Source: a virus
Taxonomy: Duplodnaviria > Caudoviricetes
Virus record (IMG/VR): IMGVR_UViG_3300028197_000002
Strand: one strand, 5' to 3'
Length of the DNA stretch: 64,000 nucleotides
The notes under the pieces were generated by a model. That model did no database searches. It was not told the origin of the DNA and saw only the letters and a program-made list of their open reading frames with translations. How positions within the stretch are numbered: the first letter of the stretch is position 1; each line of letters begins with the position of its first letter. Of this stretch, positions 9,661 through 45,214 are shown piece by piece. The translations under genes and the position numbers were made by a program.

Positions 9661-10204
9661 GAGAAAAATTTTTATTGATGGTGGTGGAAATTGGAAGAGA
9701 ATTGTAGATAGATATCTTGCTTTGGCTGAATTCGATAAGATTTACGTTTTTGAACCTAATCCTATTTTCTATAATAGTTATGAAACAAGTGATTATGATT
9801 TAATTAAAAAGGCCATTTGGACAGAAGATACAAAGAGTAATTTTTTTATTAGTAAAGATGCAAATCAAGTTGCAAGTTCTTTACTTGAGGAAAAGTTGTG
9901 TAAAGTAGATGGAGGTCTTGTTTCAAATTATTGGTTTGATCCTATTGAAGTGGAATGTATAAATTTTTCTAAATGGATTTTTGAAAATTTCAACAAAGAA
10001 AAAGACGATATTACTTTAAAGCTTGATATAGAAGGAGCAGAGTATCGTGTTCTTCCACACATGATAGAAACAGGAGCGATAAATTTTTTAAATAAATTAT
10101 TTGTTGAATTTCATTTTGATACACTTCCTGACAAAAAGGGAATGGAATTAAAAATTGTAGAAGAAATTAAAAAAATGGGAATTGAGGTTTTAGATTGGGA
10201 TTAA
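9659..10204 (+). CDS. FkbM family methyltransferase
   Basis: IFIDGGGN, YVFEPNP, KKAIW, LKLDIEGAEY, LFVEFH. Confidence 0.85.
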   Translation: MRKIFIDGGGNWKRIVDRYLALAEFDKIYVFEPNPIFYNSYETSDYDLIKKAIWTEDTKSNFFISKDANQVASSLLEEKLCKVDGGLVSNYWFDPIEVECINFSKWIFENFNKEKDDITLKLDIEGAEYRVLPHMIETGAINFLNKLFVEFHFDTLPDKKGMELKIVEEIKKMGIEVLDWD

Positions 10205-10205
10205 T

Positions 10206-11018
10206 ATGGAAAAGAAATTATCTTTGATAAAAGAAGAAATGAATGTTTTTGGATTTTCTTGTTTGGGCAAAATGTTGTCTGATGAGGAAATTGGGTTTTT
10301 TCATTCTAATTTAATTGAAAATCATCATCGTCATATATCTAAACACGGAGAAGAAAAACTAAATAAATATAGTGAGCTTGAGTTTTTAAGAAATTGCGGA
10401 TCTTTTCATGAAAATTATTTAAAACTAATAGAATCTGATTGGTTAAACTCGACAATTAACTCAGTTTTAAATGAAAAAGCAATAATACATGGCTATCATG
10501 GAATAATGACAAACGAAAAAAGCAAAGACAGGGCTTCTGAAGAGAAGTTTTCTCCAATGAGATTTCATAGAGATTCTCCTTGGTTTAAAGATACAAGAAC
10601 TTGTGTTTTAGTTCTAATGCCTTTGACGGACTTTACAGAAGATAATGGTCCGACTGAATATGTTCCTTCAACTCATTTGTTGAAAGATAAACCTAGTGAT
10701 GATTTGTTAGAGTCTAATTCTAAAAAAATGTTGGGAAAAGCAGGAACTGTTTTTTTAATGGATGGAACCACATTTCACAGGGCAGGAATCAATAGTTCTG
10801 GCAAAATAAGACCTATGCTTCAAATGAATTGGACTTTGGCATTTATGAAGCAACAAATAGACATGTGGAGAGACAATTCTTTTGAAAATTGTTCTGATCT
10901 TGTTAAATCTAGATTAGGATACAATGTTAGAACTTATAATAATCCTGATGAAATGTATTGCGAAGAAAGGCGATGGAAGTCGGGAAACTATACCATGAAG
11001 AATACGGATGTTAGATGA
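10206..11018 (+). CDS. Phytanoyl-CoA dioxygenase-like 2OG-Fe(II) oxygenase
   Basis: FHRDS HxD, PLTDFTEDNGPTEYVPSTH, TFHRAGIN..R. Confidence 0.88.
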   Translation: MEKKLSLIKEEMNVFGFSCLGKMLSDEEIGFFHSNLIENHHRHISKHGEEKLNKYSELEFLRNCGSFHENYLKLIESDWLNSTINSVLNEKAIIHGYHGIMTNEKSKDRASEEKFSPMRFHRDSPWFKDTRTCVLVLMPLTDFTEDNGPTEYVPSTHLLKDKPSDDLLESNSKKMLGKAGTVFLMDGTTFHRAGINSSGKIRPMLQMNWTLAFMKQQIDMWRDNSFENCSDLVKSRLGYNVRTYNNPDEMYCEERRWKSGNYTMKNTDVR

Positions 11019-24565: not shown

Positions 24566-24744
24566 AAACTATAAAAAAACTTAACGAAGCTGCCGCTAAA
24601 AGACACGAAGTAAATGAAAACGTATCTTTAGCTTTTAGAGATGTTGGAATAAATAGTAAAGTTAAAAAAAACAATTTAAAGCCCAAGTCTTTAGATGATT
24701 TAGTTTGCGTTACTAAATGCAAAAGTAGTTTTTGGAACGACTAA
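24553..24744 (+). CDS. Small hypothetical protein
   Basis: AGGAG RBS; sits between TPR-GT and tilS. Confidence 0.55.
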   Translation: MWCLETIKKLNEAAAKRHEVNENVSLAFRDVGINSKVKKNNLKPKSLDDLVCVTKCKSSFWND

Positions 24745-24751
24745 TTGAAAT

Positions 24752-25426
24752 ATGATAAAATTAAATAAAAAGATTGTTGATAAAACAACTTTCTATTATT
24801 GTGCTGTATCAATGGGAGTTGATAGTGTTGCTAGTTATTTGTATTTGAAAAACAAATCTTATAATATAGCTCCTGTTCATATAAATCATAATTTAAGACC
24901 TCAAAATGATTTGATGGAAGATAAGTATCGTGAATTATGTCTTCACACAGGGGACAAACCAAGGGTGTTTAAAGCGTCTTTTGAAACTATGAAAACGGAA
25001 TTAGATTTCAGAGGTTTTCGAATAGAAAGCTTTTCTAAACTCTCTGATCCATCTAAGGGTCTAATTAAACCTAATGTGATTACTGCTCATCATTTGAATG
25101 ATTGGGTTGAAAGCTATTTGCTTAATTGTCTTAGAGGTCATCCTAAGAATAGAGTAATGTCATTGGTTAGTGACTTCGCTGATTTTGAAATCACTCATCC
25201 TTTTCTTCTGACCAGAAAAAAAGATTTTAAAAGATATCTAGTTAGAAATAATTATTTAAAATTTGTTGTTGAAGATGAAACTAATAAAATTTTAAAAGGA
25301 AGTCGGAGAAATTGGATTAGGAATTTTTTAGTTCCAGAAATGAAAAAGCAAAAGCTTTCTTTAGAAAAACACGCAAAAAGAAGCATTACAAAATTGACAG
25401 AGGAGTTCGAATCAGTTAGGATTTAG
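24752..25426 (+). CDS. tilS: tRNA(Ile)-lysidine synthetase, minimal catalytic domain
   Basis: PP-loop AVSMGVDS, HINHNLR, TAHHLNDWVESYLLNCLRG, HPFL, DETN..RRNWIR; tRNA(CAU) starts 7 nt after the stop. Confidence 0.88.
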   Translation: MIKLNKKIVDKTTFYYCAVSMGVDSVASYLYLKNKSYNIAPVHINHNLRPQNDLMEDKYRELCLHTGDKPRVFKASFETMKTELDFRGFRIESFSKLSDPSKGLIKPNVITAHHLNDWVESYLLNCLRGHPKNRVMSLVSDFADFEITHPFLLTRKKDFKRYLVRNNYLKFVVEDETNKILKGSRRNWIRNFLVPEMKKQKLSLEKHAKRSITKLTEEFESVRI

Positions 25427-25432
25427 ATTCAT

Positions 25433-25505
25433 GGGGCGGTAGCTCAATGGTTAGAGCCGCAAACTCATAATTTGTTGGTTGGGGGTTCAAATCCCTCTCG
25501 CCCTA
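25433..25505 (+). tRNA. tRNA with CAT anticodon, probably tRNA-Ile2 (lysidine); no encoded CCA
   Basis: Full cloverleaf GGGGCGG/TCGCCCT, D arm GCTC/GAGC, loop CTCATAA (anticodon 25466-25468), T loop TTCAAAT. Ile2 rather than Met is inferred from adjacency to tilS. Confidence 0.92.
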
Positions 25506-25563
25506 CTTCTGCTTTTAGAAGAAAGTAGATATTCACCTTTTAATAGAAAGTTGGTTTTTCATA

Positions 25564-25725
25564 ATGAATAATAAAAGTTATTTTTTGATCGCGGCATTTG
25601 CTAGTTTTGGTCTTAGTGTTGGACTTTGGTTTCTAGGTAATCAAGAAGTTGCTAAAGATCAAGCCATTTTCGTTGGATTGTGGGTTCCTAGCATTTTGGC
25701 CCTAGGAGGCCTTTTACGTGAATGA
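25564..25725 (+). CDS. Small two-helix membrane protein
   Basis: MNNKSYFLIAAFASFGLSVGLWFLGNQEVAKDQAIFVGLWVPSILALGGLLRE, translated by hand (below ORF-track cutoff). Confidence 0.6.
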   Translation: MNNKSYFLIAAFASFGLSVGLWFLGNQEVAKDQAIFVGLWVPSILALGGLLRE

Positions 25726-26056
25726 TTTCACTTTGTTTCTTTGTGGCCTTGTAGTTGCTTTAGTTGCTGGATTAGGAGTAATCACAAGCGAAGTGTTTTT
25801 AGGCTACTCAAGATATCTTAAAAGCATACAAGACTATTATCGTAAAGAGCATGACAAAAAAAAGTCTAGCTTGAAAGAAAACTATGGAGATGTATGATGC
25901 AAAGTCGAAATTTATGCAATCTTATCTTGAGCTTGTAAAAAAAATTCAAATCAAGTTTGATTTGAGTGAAATAGAGGCAAAAGAAGTTTGTTTTATTGTT
26001 TCAGATTTTCTTCATAAAAATGAATCCTCATCAGATTAGGAGTTTGTTTGACAGTC

Positions 26057-27316
26057 ATGGATGTTATAAATTGGTCCTCAAATCAAATAAATGAATTAAA
26101 GAACCATAAAGGAAAAGGACTTCCAAAGATTGAAGGCAGAAGCAAGAATGCAATCTACAGAAAAATGCGTTCCCTTGGTCTTCAAGTCCAATGCAAACAA
26201 CCTAACTGGTCGGAAGAAGAGCTTGACATCATTTGTTCTTGTGATGGTTCCTACGTTCCTGAGATAAAAGGCAGGAGCGTTAGGGCCATCCGAATGAAAA
26301 TGAACAAAATGGGAATTTATGATTCTACTAGAGCTTTATATTGGACAGAGCAGGAAGTAGAAATTTTAAAAAATCATATAGAGAATAAAAACAAAGGTTT
26401 TCCTGTTATAAAAGGAAGAACCAAAGACGCTATTCGTAAAAAAGCTGAAGATCTAGAATTAAAAATAATTTCTTCTGATATCTGTGGCCGTCATCTCGCT
26501 TGGAGTAAGGATGAGCTTGCAAAGGTTCATCTTATTGCTCAAGGATTGAATGTTGAAATCAAAGGAAGATCTAAAGTTGCTATACGAAACAAAGTGAAGC
26601 AACTGAACTTAAAGAAAAATAGACTTTATGAGGTCTGGACCGAGCAAGAAATTTGTCTCTTAAAACAAAATAGGCCTATTACGGGTCGTAGTTTAAAAAG
26701 TATTAATAGAAAAAGAATAGATTTAGGGTTGCTAAAAAGAAAGCCAAGAAAGTCTTGGACTTTAAAAAATGAGAGAATTTTAAAAAGACTTGTAAGCAAA
26801 GGTTATTCTGCGGCGCAGATTCTTAAAATGGGAGTTTTGCCTAAGAAGTTTACAAGATACGCGATTCAGAAAAAAATGTGCCGATTAAATCTTTCTGAAA
26901 AAATGTCAAGTTATAAAAGGTTTTCAAAACATAGCCAATTGCTTTTCGAAAAGTTTTTGAAAAAAAATTGGGAAAACAAACTTCCTCAAGAACTTGCTAA
27001 CCAATGGAATGAATTAAATCCTAAAGAAAAAATCTCTAGCAGAAGAGTGATAAGATATCTTTCCAGATTAGAAATTAAGGTTTCTTCTTATGAGATGGGC
27101 AAAATAAGAAGGCAGAAAGAAAAAGAAGAAAAGATTATTAAATCATCATCTGATTTTAATTCAGCAAAGAAATTGAATGAAAAATTAAGATCTAATCGTG
27201 TTGAATTAATGCGAAAAAGATTTGAGCAAAATAAAAATATATGGACTGGATTGGATATGCACAATTATGAATTAGAAGCTTTTGGAGATTTTAAGCGATG
27301 TCTCAACAACGTTTGA
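26057..27316 (+). CDS. Protein with six tandem Myb/SANT-like HTH repeats
   Basis: Units W(S/T)xxExxxL...GR(S/T)xxAIRxK..LGL. Confidence 0.75.
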   Translation: MDVINWSSNQINELKNHKGKGLPKIEGRSKNAIYRKMRSLGLQVQCKQPNWSEEELDIICSCDGSYVPEIKGRSVRAIRMKMNKMGIYDSTRALYWTEQEVEILKNHIENKNKGFPVIKGRTKDAIRKKAEDLELKIISSDICGRHLAWSKDELAKVHLIAQGLNVEIKGRSKVAIRNKVKQLNLKKNRLYEVWTEQEICLLKQNRPITGRSLKSINRKRIDLGLLKRKPRKSWTLKNERILKRLVSKGYSAAQILKMGVLPKKFTRYAIQKKMCRLNLSEKMSSYKRFSKHSQLLFEKFLKKNWENKLPQELANQWNELNPKEKISSRRVIRYLSRLEIKVSSYEMGKIRRQKEKEEKIIKSSSDFNSAKKLNEKLRSNRVELMRKRFEQNKNIWTGLDMHNYELEAFGDFKRCLNNV

Positions 27317-33950: not shown

Positions 33951-34046
33951 GAATTACGATAACGCTAGCACTTTGAAACTCTTCTTTTACTTTCGCAGAT
34001 TTTCAGCTATAATATTTTCTTCTTGTTTGAAAATTTGTGGAGGAAA

Positions 34047-35291
34047 ATGATGTCTAAGTGTAACTTTTGCGACATGCCAGCCGAAGATTGTGGGCCTTTA
34101 ATTGAAGGTGGTTCAGAAGAGAATAAAGCGTATATTTGTTTTAATTGTATTGAACAAGGACGAAAAATGCGTCCTGAAAAGTTTGTTCGAAGCAAAAGAA
34201 AACGCAAGGATGTTAATTTACCTAATCCTAAAGAAATTGTTAGTAAATTAGATCAATATATTTGTGGTCAAGAAGTGGCAAAAAGAGATTTGGCAGTTAG
34301 TGTTTACAATCACTATGTTCGTTTATTTGATTATGATTTAAAAGACACTATAAAAGGCAGTGAACTAGAAGACACTGTAATTGATAAAAACAATGTGTTG
34401 ATGGTAGGGCCAACAGGCTCAGGAAAAACTCTGTTAGCTTCCACATTGGCATCTATCATTGATGTTCCTTTTGCAATCGGAGATGCCACAACAGTCACCG
34501 AAGCCGGATACGTAGGTGAAGACGTTGAGAATTTACTATTAAAATTGATAAGAGCAGCAGATATGGATATTGAGTCTGCTGAACATGGAATACTTTATAT
34601 TGATGAAATAGACAAAATAGGAAGAACTTCTGGGAACAGATCAATTACGAGAGATGTTTCAGGTGAAGGAGTTCAACAGTCTTTACTAAAGCTATTGGAA
34701 GGAACTGTTGCAAATGTGCCTCCCGCAGGAGGACGAAAACATCCTGAACAAGAGTTTTTACAGGTTGATACTTCTAATATTCTTTTTATTTGCGGAGGAA
34801 CTTTCACAGGTCTGGGGGATATAGTTAAGAAAAGAATTTGTTCTGAAAAAAATAAAATTGGTTTTGGAAGTTCTGTAGGGTCTGTTGATGACAAAGATTA
34901 TTCAATAGATTATCAAGCTGAAGATTTGTTTGAATATGGCTTAATACCAGAGTTTGTTGGTAGATTGCCTAGTCAAACATTTTTAGAGGAATTATCGGAA
35001 GAAAAGTTAATTCATGTTTTAACTGAACCTAAAAATTCACTTTTAAAACAATATCAAAAACAATTTTTATACAGTGGAATAAATTTAAAGTTCACTAAAA
35101 AAGCAGTAGCAGAAATTGCCAAGATTGCACATGAGCAAAAAACTGGAGCTAGGGCTTTAAGAACTATTGTCTCAGGTATTATGAATCCTATTGTTTATGA
35201 CATTTTTGATATTAAAAGAAAAGAATTGACAATTGATGATAAAATTGTAAGGGGTGAAAAGAAAGTCGTTACAAAAGTTAAAGCTGCTTGA
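34047..35291 (+). CDS. clpX: ATP-dependent Clp protease ATP-binding subunit ClpX
   Basis: C4 zinc domain, GPTGSGKT, AGYVGEDVE, IDEIDK, RDVSGEGVQQ, RKHP, IGF ClpP-docking loop, TGARAL. Confidence 0.96.
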   Translation: MMSKCNFCDMPAEDCGPLIEGGSEENKAYICFNCIEQGRKMRPEKFVRSKRKRKDVNLPNPKEIVSKLDQYICGQEVAKRDLAVSVYNHYVRLFDYDLKDTIKGSELEDTVIDKNNVLMVGPTGSGKTLLASTLASIIDVPFAIGDATTVTEAGYVGEDVENLLLKLIRAADMDIESAEHGILYIDEIDKIGRTSGNRSITRDVSGEGVQQSLLKLLEGTVANVPPAGGRKHPEQEFLQVDTSNILFICGGTFTGLGDIVKKRICSEKNKIGFGSSVGSVDDKDYSIDYQAEDLFEYGLIPEFVGRLPSQTFLEELSEEKLIHVLTEPKNSLLKQYQKQFLYSGINLKFTKKAVAEIAKIAHEQKTGARALRTIVSGIMNPIVYDIFDIKRKELTIDDKIVRGEKKVVTKVKAA

Positions 35292-35328: not shown

Positions 35329-35400
35329 TCTTCGGTAGCACAATGGTAGTGCGGCAAACTGTTAATTTGTAGGTTGTAGGTTCGAGTCCTACCCGAAGAG
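35329..35400 (+). tRNA. tRNA-Asn(GTT); no encoded CCA
   Basis: Cloverleaf TCTTCGG/CCGAAGA, G discriminator, loop CTGTTAA, T loop TTCGAGT. Confidence 0.93.
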
Positions 35401-35431
35401 CTTGATAAATTTGCAAAAAAGGAGTCTTGTA

Positions 35432-42738: not shown

Positions 42739-44466
42739 TTAAAAAAATGACAGATAGTCTATTGTTTTATTTGTTGTTATGTGAGGATTAACAAAATTTT
42801 CTTCAAAATACTTCTTGTTCTTATTAGTTTTTTGAAGACTTGTGTTCAAATCAAATTCTTTGAATTGTCTAATTATTTCTTGGCTGTTGTTTTTATGGTT
42901 TTTTATAACTAAAAAGTTTTCTAGACTATAGGCAGGATGCTCATATCTTATGTTTTTTTCACATACTATAACTTTGTGATTCATGTATAGGCTCTCTAGA
43001 ACCACAATTGGACAAGGGTCATATTTACTAGTTAAAAATAAATAGTCACATTCTTCTAGAATTGAGTGTGGATTTTTTAAAACATCTATAAACTTGAGGT
43101 TTGGTGCATTTGTTTCTATTTGACCACCAATCCATACAAAGTCATACTCTGGACAGGCTTTAGCTGTTTCAATAAATAGTTTGAAATTTTTTCTAGGAAT
43201 GGGAGTTCCACACATCCCAATTTTTACACGTTCGTTTTGTTTTTTTCTATTTTCATTTTCATCAATTTTCATAAGTCTATTTTTATGAATAAATTCTGGC
43301 ACAACAAAAGTTTTTCTTTTTATTTCTGAAGAAAAATTAAAATGATTTTGTATCTTATTTCTGATTATTTGTGCTACAAAAAATGTTGCTTTAGAGTTGG
43401 TGATTAAACTAAACAATCCTTGATCTGGTTCTTGCCAAAATTTCCTAAAATCTTTCATTATGCTTTCATAGGTTTCATGAAAATGATATATTGTCTTGTT
43501 TGCAAGATGTGAAAATGCACTGTCTCGAATCATAGGGCTGAGAGAATTGCTGTAGATGAGTTTAGGTTTATTTTTATTTAAAATATCTAATAAGTTGTTG
43601 GCATTGTAATAGAATGCATGTGTAATTTTTTTATTTAGGACAAAGCAATCACTGGGGTTAGGATTTAAGAACACTACATTTTCATGACCTTGATCCACCA
43701 GATAGTTGGCTAAGTCTTGAGCGAAGAATGGTGCTCCTGTCACTGTAGAAGAATGGTTCACAATGACTATAGCTTCTTTTGGCAACTTTATTATATTAGG
43801 TTTTTTTAACTCTTTAATTCTGAACCCAGCATCTCGGATAATTTGCCCCAATAACCTTTCTGCTAAATGTGTAAAAGAACCACCACTCACATACCCGTTT
43901 GGCATTTTATCATACCATTCATCTATAATTTCATTTGTTAAGATTTTTATTATAACTTTAAAATCAACCATGAACATTGTGCAAGATACAAATTCTAGGC
44001 TTTGAAGTTTGTTTTCATACCAACGTTTTTGCTTCAAAACCTGATATCCACACATTTTGTAATCACTTTGAATAAGTGTAGAGATATTTTTCTTTATAGT
44101 ATCATCTGATGAAATTAGAGAGTCTACTAATAAATTTCTTCTTTTAAAAAGCTGTTCTTCACTTTTTTTTCGATGGACGTTTTTAGTGTGTAATTTTATT
44201 AAATAACCATAATTTTTTTTTCGAATCTTTTTTAATGTTTTTAAGAATGGTCCAATGTCCATGCCTTTATTTGGATATTTGTCAATTTTTGCGTTTGGAA
44301 ATGATTTTAATATTTCATTAGAAATATCTTTATTTTCATCACATAAAGTGATGTAAAGATCAAATTTTGCTTTTAGCTTTTTGAGTTTTTCTTCAAAGTA
44401 CCACCAGTGGTCTGTGTAGTAGACATGTAGAACTATTGCTATTTTTGTGTTGGCATATTTTATCAT
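42739..44466 (-). CDS. Rhamnan synthesis F (RgpF)-like domain fused to a GT-B (GT4-like) domain
   Basis: IVLHVYY, NKGMDIGPF, KLHTK, HLAERL; C-terminal RKNF..F, LFLTSKYDPCPIVVLESL. Confidence 0.8.
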   Translation of the reverse strand: MIKYANTKIAIVLHVYYTDHWWYFEEKLKKLKAKFDLYITLCDENKDISNEILKSFPNAKIDKYPNKGMDIGPFLKTLKKIRKKNYGYLIKLHTKNVHRKKSEEQLFKRRNLLVDSLISSDDTIKKNISTLIQSDYKMCGYQVLKQKRWYENKLQSLEFVSCTMFMVDFKVIIKILTNEIIDEWYDKMPNGYVSGGSFTHLAERLLGQIIRDAGFRIKELKKPNIIKLPKEAIVIVNHSSTVTGAPFFAQDLANYLVDQGHENVVFLNPNPSDCFVLNKKITHAFYYNANNLLDILNKNKPKLIYSNSLSPMIRDSAFSHLANKTIYHFHETYESIMKDFRKFWQEPDQGLFSLITNSKATFFVAQIIRNKIQNHFNFSSEIKRKTFVVPEFIHKNRLMKIDENENRKKQNERVKIGMCGTPIPRKNFKLFIETAKACPEYDFVWIGGQIETNAPNLKFIDVLKNPHSILEECDYLFLTSKYDPCPIVVLESLYMNHKVIVCEKNIRYEHPAYSLENFLVIKNHKNNSQEIIRQFKEFDLNTSLQKTNKNKKYFEENFVNPHITTNKTIDYLSFF

Positions 44467-44485
44467 TTATTTCTATATATCTTTT

Positions 44486-45214
44486 ATGGAAAGTTTTAAC
44501 AATTGGCTTATAAGAGAGCAAAGTAGCAAAAAAACAGTTTTATCTGTATTTGACTTCGATGGAACAATAGCAAATGTCCCAGAAAAACCTAGTTCAGATG
44601 ATAAGAAGCATCATTGGGATGGAAAAGATTGGTGGGGTTCGTCTGCTTCTTTAGAGCCTCCTTTCTATGATGGTTGGGTCAATGATGAAGTTGTGAGTGC
44701 TTTTAAAAAAGCCAAATCTGATCCTGAAACACATGCTATTCTTCTCACTGGAAGAAGAGGTGTTAATTCTCATGCTGTAAGGACTGTTCTTCGCAATCAA
44801 GGTCTTCATGGCAGAAGGATTATTCCTGATTCTAATCAAAAAGAAAAAAATAAGTACAAAGATCTTATAGATCAAAAAAAAGATATTCCTCATAAAATGA
44901 ATCATGATTCTCATGATGAGTATTTTAGTGGAGATCATAGAACCGAGCCTAAGTATCCTATTGATCCTAATAGTAAAAAAGGCAAACCAGCAGGTGATAC
45001 AATGAGTCACAAGACTTATGTAGTTAAAAATTTAATGCATGATGGGATCAGAGAAGTTCACTTTTGGGATGATAGAGATGATCATGTTGACAATTGGATC
45101 AAGTTGGCAAAAGAACTAAAAGAAAAATATTCTAATTTAAAAATAATTTTACATAAAGTAAATCCTCCTAGTTCTTCAAAACAGAAAGCCAAGATTGATC
45201 ATATTAATATTTAA
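44486..45214 (+). CDS. HAD-family phosphatase (Swiss-Army-knife RNA-repair type) with T4-type leader
   Basis: VFDFDGT, WW, LLTGRR, FWDDR; N-terminus MESFNNWLIRE. Confidence 0.75.
   Translation: MESFNNWLIREQSSKKTVLSVFDFDGTIANVPEKPSSDDKKHHWDGKDWWGSSASLEPPFYDGWVNDEVVSAFKKAKSDPETHAILLTGRRGVNSHAVRTVLRNQGLHGRRIIPDSNQKEKNKYKDLIDQKKDIPHKMNHDSHDEYFSGDHRTEPKYPIDPNSKKGKPAGDTMSHKTYVVKNLMHDGIREVHFWDDRDDHVDNWIKLAKELKEKYSNLKIILHKVNPPSSSKQKAKIDHINI

Follow-up and report, generated by a model that had tools for sequence, protein, structure and literature searches.

Two genes lie end to end on the plus strand of IMG/VR virus record IMGVR_UViG_3300028197_000002 (Duplodnaviria; Caudoviricetes), a stretch of 64,000 nucleotides that we analysed as a whole and refer to as the window. 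The first is an open reading frame (ORF) for a small relative of the tRNA-Ile lysidine synthetase TilS, called mini-TilS below, and the second is a tRNA gene with the anticodon CAU (Table 1). A preliminary description of this locus had reported a minimal 224-aa TilS with the variant PP-loop SMGVDS, and the ORF, its match to Pfam PF01171 and its TilS-specific motifs all agree with that assignment. The same description had placed the stop codon 7 nt before the tRNA: the adjacency and the CAU anticodon were borne out, and the spacer proved to be 6 nt long. With a spacer this short, co-transcription of the two genes is probable, RNase P then cutting directly behind the stop codon. The tRNA ends in the discriminator base A73 (position 25505) and does not encode CCA. 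Its C34 is the predicted site of lysidine formation, which we infer from TilS chemistry (PMC12069591).

Mini-TilS matched PF01171 with an E-value (expect value) of 1.4e-20 (74.2 bits, cut-off 27) and TIGR02432, the NCBIfam equivalog-domain model lysidine_TilS_N, with 1.6e-22 (80.3 bits). The model of full-length TilS, NF007942, gave 38.8 bits against a cut-off of 606, and PHROGs returned no family match. The sole sequence matches in the PDB were TilS of A. aeolicus (1wy5, residues 27-230 of 317) and MesJ/TilS of E. coli (1ni5). An AlphaFold2 model built with 30 homologues in the alignment reached a mean pLDDT (predicted local distance difference test) of 92.5 and a pTM (predicted template modelling score) of 0.89, and Foldseek ranked five TilS/MesJ structures first for this model (2e21, 1ni5, 1wy5, 2e89 and 3a2k, ranks 1-5; E 6e-11, template modelling score 0.71-0.76 relative to the query). 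TtuA came next. We rejected a TtuA/TtcA-type thiolase, because these enzymes ranked lower than TilS in the Foldseek search and mini-TilS has no CxxC motifs. The TilS-specific N-terminal motifs (HxxHxLR, TAHHxxDxxE...RG, DxxN and RNxxR) were all kept relative to E. coli and A. aeolicus TilS, and an alignment of 20 phage homologues with E. coli TilS held 26 invariant columns, including S-x-G-x-D-S, H43/H46, T111-A112-x-H114-x-x-D117-x-x-E120, R128-G129, D175-x-x-N178 and R186-N187-x-x-R190.

Mini-TilS belongs to a large family of uniformly short proteins. A word-indexed search returned 354 relatives, of which the 120 listed were all 206-254 aa long, and an exhaustive search of 1.84 billion representative sequences yielded 236 clusters at E<1e-10; of the best 150, almost all were 200-250 aa long. 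Thirty members aligned at about 53% identity shared 54 invariant columns; together with the uniform ORF length, this indicates, at the level of sequence, a family under purifying selection. The PP-loop residues S20, G22, D24 and S25 were invariant, also in comparison with E. coli TilS. SMGxDS occurred in 119 of the 120 close homologues listed of the 354, so the methionine of SMGVDS is, on this alignment, not a sign of decay. Among 150 more distant representatives, 86 had the canonical SGGxDS, and the rest had S[MSAC]GxDS, with SSG, SAG and SCG among them. Wherever we examined the context, the family resided on phage contigs: members were found on contigs of 110-490 kb with phage-like content, with IMG/VR viral contigs of up to 459 kb among the relatives, and on two records of 635-642 kb deposited as ‘uncultured phage’ (LR756502/LR745206). 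Scanning one genome per species for 185,579 prokaryote species gave a single match, on a 6.6-kb contig of a metagenome-assembled genome (MAG). The same pair of TilS and tRNA is present on this contig, which is probably binned phage DNA.

The protein consists of the catalytic N-terminal PP-loop domain followed by two terminal helices. Both tRNA-recognition domains, the C-terminal domains CTD1 and CTD2, are absent: the alignment ends at about residue 230 of the 317-aa A. aeolicus enzyme. In cellular TilS, types I and II are defined by these two domains, through which the anticodon and acceptor stems are recognised (PMC11947777, PMC12514573). A split-off recognition domain in an adjacent gene was considered and rejected, as the window and its relatives L049 and L051 have unrelated genes directly upstream of TilS. 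A homodimer of mini-TilS was predicted with an ipSAE (interaction prediction score from aligned errors) of 0.60, compared with 0.19 for the best of three controls. That mark is attained by 20 of 30 proteins whose solved structure is a pair of one chain, and by 1 of 23 whose structure is a single chain. The dimer-model runs had at least 95% of contacts in common, with a partner pLDDT of at least 87 and an interface formed by residues 122-132 and 185-207. This prediction may only mirror the likeness to solved cellular TilS structures. The strongly conserved basic stretch KGSRRNWIR, the two terminal helices and the homodimer are candidate elements for selecting the tRNA.

We then asked how regularly the gene is accompanied by a tRNA(CAU), a survey of phages that the preliminary description had proposed. 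Twelve lineages with 47-95% protein identity were sampled; the linked tRNAs lie on the same strand as tilS, and the loci labelled L in this comparison are relatives of the window. In 9 of the 12 lineages, a CAU tRNA follows the gene directly or at 230-305 nt. The distance behind the TilS stop is 6 nt in the window, 11 nt in L045-L048, 13 nt in L052, 27 nt in L003/L004, 42 nt in L002 and 45 nt in L056. In L050 (230 nt) one small ORF intervenes, and in L001 (305 nt) one ORF for a small membrane protein. In L049 and L051, the tRNA gene overlaps the end of the called TilS ORF. L054, a 30%-identical member, has a CAU tRNA 2.3 kb upstream. An exact 42-mer of the window gene had no match in IMG/VR, and two relatives, G001 (458 kb) and G002 (381 kb), served in its place for whole-record tRNA scans. 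These found a single CAU tRNA in each, beside TilS; most of their other tRNAs are for codons ending in A (Arg-UCU, Leu-UAA, Gly-UCC, Thr-UGU, Lys-UUU, Gln-UUG, Glu-UUC and Pro-UGG), and these sets resemble the tRNA set of phage T4. Since this gene order is found again in relatives of only about 50% identity, the pairing of TilS and tRNA is, on this comparison, not a matter of chance.

Three arrangements among these relatives are unusual in themselves. L049 (ORF 10001-10717, tRNA 10635-10709) and L051 (ORF 10001-10666, tRNA 10644-10717) have no TilS stop codon before the tRNA gene; the ORF ends within the tRNA gene in L051 and past it in L049, and excision of the tRNA from a co-transcript would leave the tilS mRNA with no stop codon. 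The L051 tRNA (10644-10717) also has intact stems with an aberrant T-loop, ATCGTGC versus TTCRANT, and may be decaying or unusual. Lastly, ARAGORN calls a tRNA Ile(UAU) at L042:2441-2515, in the same G001 record that has the TilS-tRNA(CAU) pair, which would be a second, unusual route to AUA decoding in one phage.

A CAU anticodon is shared by tRNA-Met, tRNA-fMet and tRNA-Ile2, and we therefore compared class marks. The window tRNA pairs G1:U72, G3:C70, G4:C69, C5:G68 and G27:U43, and has the anticodon loop CUCAUAA. The marks of an initiator (C1xA72, G29-31:C39-41 and A11:U24) are absent, the corresponding elements being G1:U72, an anticodon stem GCAAA/UUUGU and a D-stem GCUC/GAGC. In the CAU tRNAs of 234 genomes, Silva et al. 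never found G3, A3, C70 or T70 in tRNA-Met or tRNA-fMet, so that these bases indicate tRNA-Ile (PMC1635315). All 11 TilS-linked phage tRNAs have R3:Y70 (10 G:C, 1 A:U). In our re-check on CAU tRNAs from about 70 bacterial genomes, C3:G70 was present in 20 of 20 parsed Met-class tRNAs and R3:Y70 in 33 of 36 of the Ile2 class, the remaining Ile2 tRNAs being of the E. coli-like GGCCC type. In a side observation on a small-genome phylum (L060-L088; genomes G007-G046, 0.5-2 Mb), two initiator-like tRNAs had G3:C70, which means that the 3:70 rule applies to elongators and initiators have to be excluded first. Many elongator tRNAs-Met of that phylum carry an A31-G39 mismatch at the base of the anticodon stem.

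Whole-sequence profiles, with the broader of two reference sets, pointed in the same direction. Samples centred on an Alteromonas MAG and on Flavobacterium gave the same 14 genomes, and the reference set is thus treated as mixed bacteria rather than as named phyla. With the broad reference set (31 Ile2, 11 Met and 28 fMet; 68 of 70 correct by leave-one-out without the acceptor stem), the Ile/Met distance ratio of the window tRNA, calculated without the acceptor stem, was 0.81, and Ile2 tRNAs made up its three nearest neighbours. The ratio was below 1 for 9 of the 11 phage tRNAs. Among 5,426 E. coli genomes, the best match of the window tRNA was the ileX/ileY tRNA-Ile. We consider this profile supportive, not conclusive, of Ile2; with the 3:70 pair and the linkage, sequence comparison supports a tRNA of the tRNA-Ile2(CAU) type that is evolutionarily linked to the enzyme. 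Many annotations of ‘tRNA-Met’ in large phages are probably tRNA-Ile2 as well.

A second acceptor-stem pair bears on the relation between this tRNA and cellular enzymes. Reading of the acceptor stem through CTD2 involves 4:69 and 5:68 in E. coli TilS and 3:70 and 4:69 in B. cenocepacia TilS (PMC11947777). C4:G69 is present in 35 of 36 cellular Ile2-class tRNAs versus 5 of 11 TilS-linked phage tRNAs (Fisher p = 2.7e-4). Counted by distinct stems, the phage figure is 5 of 9 (p = 0.004), and the phage lineages in this comparison are not fully independent. The window tRNA itself has G4:C69, not the C4:G69 frequent in Ile2, together with C5:G68 as in Ile2; its 95% relative L045 has C4:G69, a compensatory swap. 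Such a pattern would be in keeping with phage tRNAs that receive their modification from the phage's own enzyme and can now do without the host TilS. Enzyme and tRNA have probably co-evolved into a unit independent of host TilS, because the enzyme lacks the domains by which cellular TilS reads the acceptor and anticodon stems.

The codon usage of the window, which has about 30% G+C, matches the AT-rich phage with heavy ATA use that had been described at the outset: in its 55 ORFs of at least 150 aa, ATA makes up 30.3 per 1000 codons and 40% of the isoleucine codons, and exceeds ATG (19.7 per 1000). For comparison, ATA amounts to 4.9 per 1000 codons in E. coli and 16.8 in B. fragilis (PMC12514573). 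Most relatives are also ATA-heavy (13-44 per 1000). The GC-rich host proposed in the preliminary description found no support, either in the ClpX comparison (about 50-54% identity to bacteria of many phyla, no host signal) or in the low ATA usage of the cassette-bearing L050, given below. We discarded a host assignment through the single match in the genome collection: the 6.6-kb contig belongs to an 800-kb MAG named Pseudomonadales, the ‘phylum’ sample around it consists of 0.5-2 Mb genomes, and the match is probably a binning artefact.

We read the locus as a two-gene AUA-decoding cassette of a huge AT-rich marine phage, formed by mini-TilS and a tRNA-Ile2 precursor, and give this reading a probability of roughly three in four. 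By comparison, the self-supplied cassette is well supported, through the TilS motifs, the recurrent linkage and R3:Y70. By homology, mini-TilS would adenylate C2 of cytidine 34 (mechanism summarised in PMC12069591), and attack of lysine on the adenylated C2 position would yield lysidine. Lysidine at C34 would switch the tRNA from AUG to AUA reading and move its charging from methionyl-tRNA synthetase to isoleucyl-tRNA synthetase, so that the phage would provide the enzyme as well as its substrate for decoding a codon that accounts for 3% of those it uses. The sequence, the fold similarity, the conserved linkage, the class marks of the tRNA and the codon usage are direct observations, from which the chemistry, the substrate relationship, isoleucine charging and a benefit to the phage would follow by inference.

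A number of observations weigh against this reading. The protein does not reach the curated TIGR02432 cut-off of 93.6 bits, a methionine replaces the second glycine of its PP-loop, and it has lost both tRNA-recognition domains. B. cenocepacia TilS from which CTD2 had been deleted is a poor enzyme (PMC11947777), and full activity of an N-terminal domain alone is thus not a given. Nor does a CAU tRNA accompany every member: none was found close to the gene in L005, L006, L007, L053, L055 or LR756502/LR745206, and none anywhere in the fragments G003 and G004. For the tRNA, the Ile2 and Met labels of the reference sequences rest on published class marks, and with a reference set from the small-genome phylum the Ile/Met ratio was 0.99-1.07, that is, the classes were not separated for the phage tRNAs. 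Finally, L050 and L056 carry the cassette and use ATA at only about 6 per 1000 codons; ATA-heavy usage is not a strict correlate of the cassette.

Table 1 Features of the TilS-tRNA(CAU) locus and of its surroundings. Positions refer to the window unless a locus is named.
Feature	Position	Strand	Details
Mini-TilS ORF	24752-25426	+	ATG start, 224 aa, TAG stop at 25424-25426 (mechanical ORF list)
Variant PP-loop SMGVDS	24809-24826	+	Residues 20-25; canonical SGGxDS, 5/6 positions match
Spacer ATTCAT, 6 nt	25427-25432	+	Read from sequence, TAG stop to first base of tRNA
tRNA(CAU), non-initiator	25433-25505	+	Rfam RF00005 66.4 bits (gathering score 29); ARAGORN tRNA(cat) 25433-25506
Anticodon CAT	25466-25468	+	ARAGORN; C34 at 25466, predicted lysidine site
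Promoter-like TTGACA-17-TAGGAT	25394-25422	+	In 3' end of TilS ORF, 10 nt before tRNA; 10/12 consensus matches
Small predicted membrane protein, ~53-58 aa, motif FVGLW.P	25564-25725	+	No family match
RNA-ligase-like gene, 211 aa	21872-22507	+	PF09414 32.6 bits (cut-off 27); 2-3 genes upstream of mini-TilS
ClpX, full-length	34023-35291	+	Zinc finger, AAA_2 and D2-small domains
tRNA-Asn(GUU)	35329-35401	+	Directly after ClpX
HAD ‘Swiss Army Knife’ RNA-repair domain	44447-45214	+	
HAD ‘Swiss Army Knife’ RNA-repair domain	L050:11985-12461		1.3 kb from cassette

The alternative that fares best, though we consider it unlikely, places the main benefit in counter-defence or host independence, of which the preliminary description had already named the replacement of a tRNA cut by host defences: AUA decoding would be kept when host tRNA-Ile2 or TilS is depleted, cleaved or shut off, and the cassette would be part of a phage toolkit for RNA repair and replacement rather than a top-up of a rare tRNA. 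The gene neighbourhood offers a hint of an RNA repair and maintenance theme. The RNA-ligase-like gene upstream of mini-TilS is kept at that distance in L045, L049 and L051 (66% identity to the same-position gene in L049), and HAD RNA-repair domains occur in the window and close to the cassette in L050. Loss of C4:G69, which cellular TilS reads, would also fit a phage that does not rely on the host enzyme. Gene proximity in a huge phage carries little weight as evidence, however, the genes directly flanking TilS are not conserved, and we know of no nuclease that targets tRNA-Ile2. Counter-defence is also compatible with codon supply and does not exclude it.

An ordinary elongator tRNA-Met is somewhat less probable still. 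On this account, the PP-loop protein acts elsewhere or adds another group, and the two genes are adjacent for expression only. ARAGORN labels the tRNA as tRNA-Met, from its anticodon, and both the sub-cut-off TIGR02432 score and the failure of overall similarity to part Ile2 from Met in the small-genome-phylum set speak for it too. Against it stand R3:Y70, found in every linked tRNA and in none of the 20 parsed Met-class tRNAs, and the nearest neighbours and best E. coli match, which are tRNA-Ile. The enzyme has kept all TilS-specific motifs and lacks the CxxC motifs of TtuA/TtcA, and the other tRNAs of the phage set are for codons ending in A.

It is very unlikely that the domain-less enzyme mainly acts on host tRNAs, boosting lysidine in host tRNA-Ile2 or converting host tRNA-Met(CAU) and so disturbing host translation. 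Deletion of CTD2 from cellular TilS does remove acceptor-stem discrimination, including that of 3:70 (PMC11947777), and several family members have no CAU tRNA nearby. In addition, the Pseudomonas jumbo phage MIJ3 has two CAU tRNAs with identical bodies and different acceptor stems, which a lone N-terminal domain is expected not to distinguish. The tight, recurrent linkage to an Ile2-class phage tRNA nevertheless argues for that tRNA as the main substrate, and conversion of tRNA-Met would also harm the translation of the phage's own AUG codons (ATG, 19.7 per 1000). A decaying or catalytically dead TilS remnant, suggested by SMGVDS in place of SGGxDS, the missing domains and the score below the NCBIfam cut-off, is the least probable account of all, given SMGxDS fixed in nearly all close homologues diverged to about 50% identity, the 54 invariant columns, intact ORFs of uniform length and a confidently predicted fold.

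Returning to the AUA-decoding cassette, a broader and rather doubtful extension is that the phage proteins of 200-250 aa form a third architectural class of TilS, with no appended tRNA-reading domain and probably dimeric. They would owe their specificity to having co-evolved with, and perhaps to being co-expressed with, a phage tRNA from which the cellular TilS determinants have been lost, making the two an orthogonal, portable AUA-decoding pair; such an enzyme might also lysidinylate host tRNA-Met and tilt host translation.

Elsewhere in the window we found genes for a Nol-like carbamoyltransferase, glycosyltransferases, phosphoribosyl pyrophosphate (PRPP) synthetase, ClpX, a clamp-loader-like ATPase and an ATP-dependent DNA ligase, along with phage-family matches. 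The small FVGLW.P membrane protein travels with the cassette: it follows the tRNA in the window, lies between TilS and the tRNA in L001, and is also found downstream in L006. Promoter-like sites in the region numbered 7, compared with 12.0 in shuffled sequences, so that the site near the end of the TilS ORF is not significant. No terminator-like site was found in the region scanned, and for the hairpin that follows the tRNA the z-score is -1.4. Three marine metatranscriptome runs, available as contigs only, hold 5-10% of the sampled window words; one of them contains 100%-identical short contigs at 24656-24806, 25524-25684 and 25921-26100 (depth 3-6), and at the low depth of the three runs the tRNA is covered by none of the contigs.

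Compared with known systems, mini-TilS has the same catalytic PP-loop domain, motifs and fold as cellular TilS of type I (NTD, the N-terminal domain, with CTD1 and CTD2; E. coli and G. kaustophilus) and type II (NTD with CTD1; A. aeolicus), and its predicted homodimer matches the dimeric state of the solved cellular enzymes. Unlike these, it is without both appended domains, has the PP-loop SMGxDS and scores below the TIGR02432 cut-off. The closest published counterpart is TilS of the Pseudomonas jumbo phages vB_PaeM_MIJ3 and PA5oct, reported in 2019 as the first for phages (PMC6892783). MIJ3 gp263, which is identical in PA5oct, belongs to the mini-TilS family: its 203 aa comprise the N-terminal domain alone, and its alignment with the window protein extends from one end to the other (27% identity, E 5e-13). 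MIJ3 also has a CAU tRNA with G3:C70, like the window tRNA. It is an AT-rich phage of a GC-rich host, with a GC content called drastically different from that of the host (PMC6892783), which is the very scenario that the preliminary description had proposed for the window. MIJ3 differs in that its CAU tRNAs are located 7-10 kb away in a tRNA cluster and its PP-loop is the canonical SGGIDS. The published account neither ties TilS to a phage tRNA nor remarks on the absent domains (PMC6892783).

In MIJ3 (LR588166.1, about 174.8-177.5 kb; loci L238, L240 and L242) we observed three CAU tRNAs, the third of which is initiator-like. The other two have identical D, anticodon and T arms, with the acceptor strands CCCTCGG (C3:G70) and GGGACTT (G3:C70). 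This natural acceptor-stem swap suggests one tRNA-Met and one tRNA-Ile2, a pair that a domain-less TilS would find hard to distinguish.

More distant parallels exist as well. TilS is annotated in the Ralstonia phage RsoM2USA (PMC8504454), but its ORF84 is 349 aa long. Chloroviruses encode a putative TilS in 39 of 41 cases, with the same AUA rationale and tRNA clusters (bioRxiv 10.1101/2020.07.06.190819); they are viruses of eukaryotes with no reported adjacency to a CAU tRNA, and we liken them by description only. Green-algal plastids keep tilS and trnI(CAU), enzyme and substrate tRNA, together in a small AT-rich genome (PMC13494906), and retention of that module is not strictly tied to AUA frequency, as in L050 here. 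The plastid ‘module’ is a co-occurrence in an organellar plastome, not a tight gene pair, and is not viral.

The novelty implied by the preliminary description was therefore overstated: TilS of phages and chloroviruses had already been published (PMC6892783, PMC8504454, bioRxiv 10.1101/2020.07.06.190819). Virus-encoded TilS is already known from MIJ3/PA5oct, RsoM2USA and chloroviruses, and the domain-less form already exists in the cultured MIJ3. In the literature searched, we did not find descriptions of a large phage TilS family without both recognition domains, of a tilS-tRNA(Ile2-class) cassette across a clade of huge marine phages, or of a relaxed 4:69 determinant in TilS-linked phage tRNAs. 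Current biochemical work regards TilS as dependent on one or two appended domains for discriminating between tRNA-Ile2 and tRNA-Met (PMC11947777, PMC12514573). A family consisting of the catalytic domain only, with MIJ3/PA5oct as cultured representative, would be a natural minimal system for studying how C34 is selected, and substrate tRNAs with a relaxed 4:69 and a kept 3:70 pair would likewise be useful for this question. Genetic-code engineering could profit as well from a compact pair of enzyme and tRNA by which a CAU tRNA is switched from Met/AUG to Ile/AUA.

The tRNA half of the pair has a classical precedent. A tRNA-Ile with the anticodon CAU is a long-known component of phage T4, a further respect in which the locus is less new than first described. 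The CAU tRNA of the T4 cluster is annotated as tRNA-Ile within a set for A-ending codons, and has the D-arm and a non-Watson-Crick 27:43 pair in common with the window tRNA. T4 differs in encoding no TilS, and its tRNA keeps C3:G70, C4:G69 and C5:G68, as E. coli ileX does. Since these include the pairs that E. coli TilS reads (PMC11947777), the T4 tRNA depends on the host enzyme. The cassette in the window would extend this picture: T4 supplies a tRNA for AUA, and the window phage would supply in addition the enzyme that activates such a tRNA.

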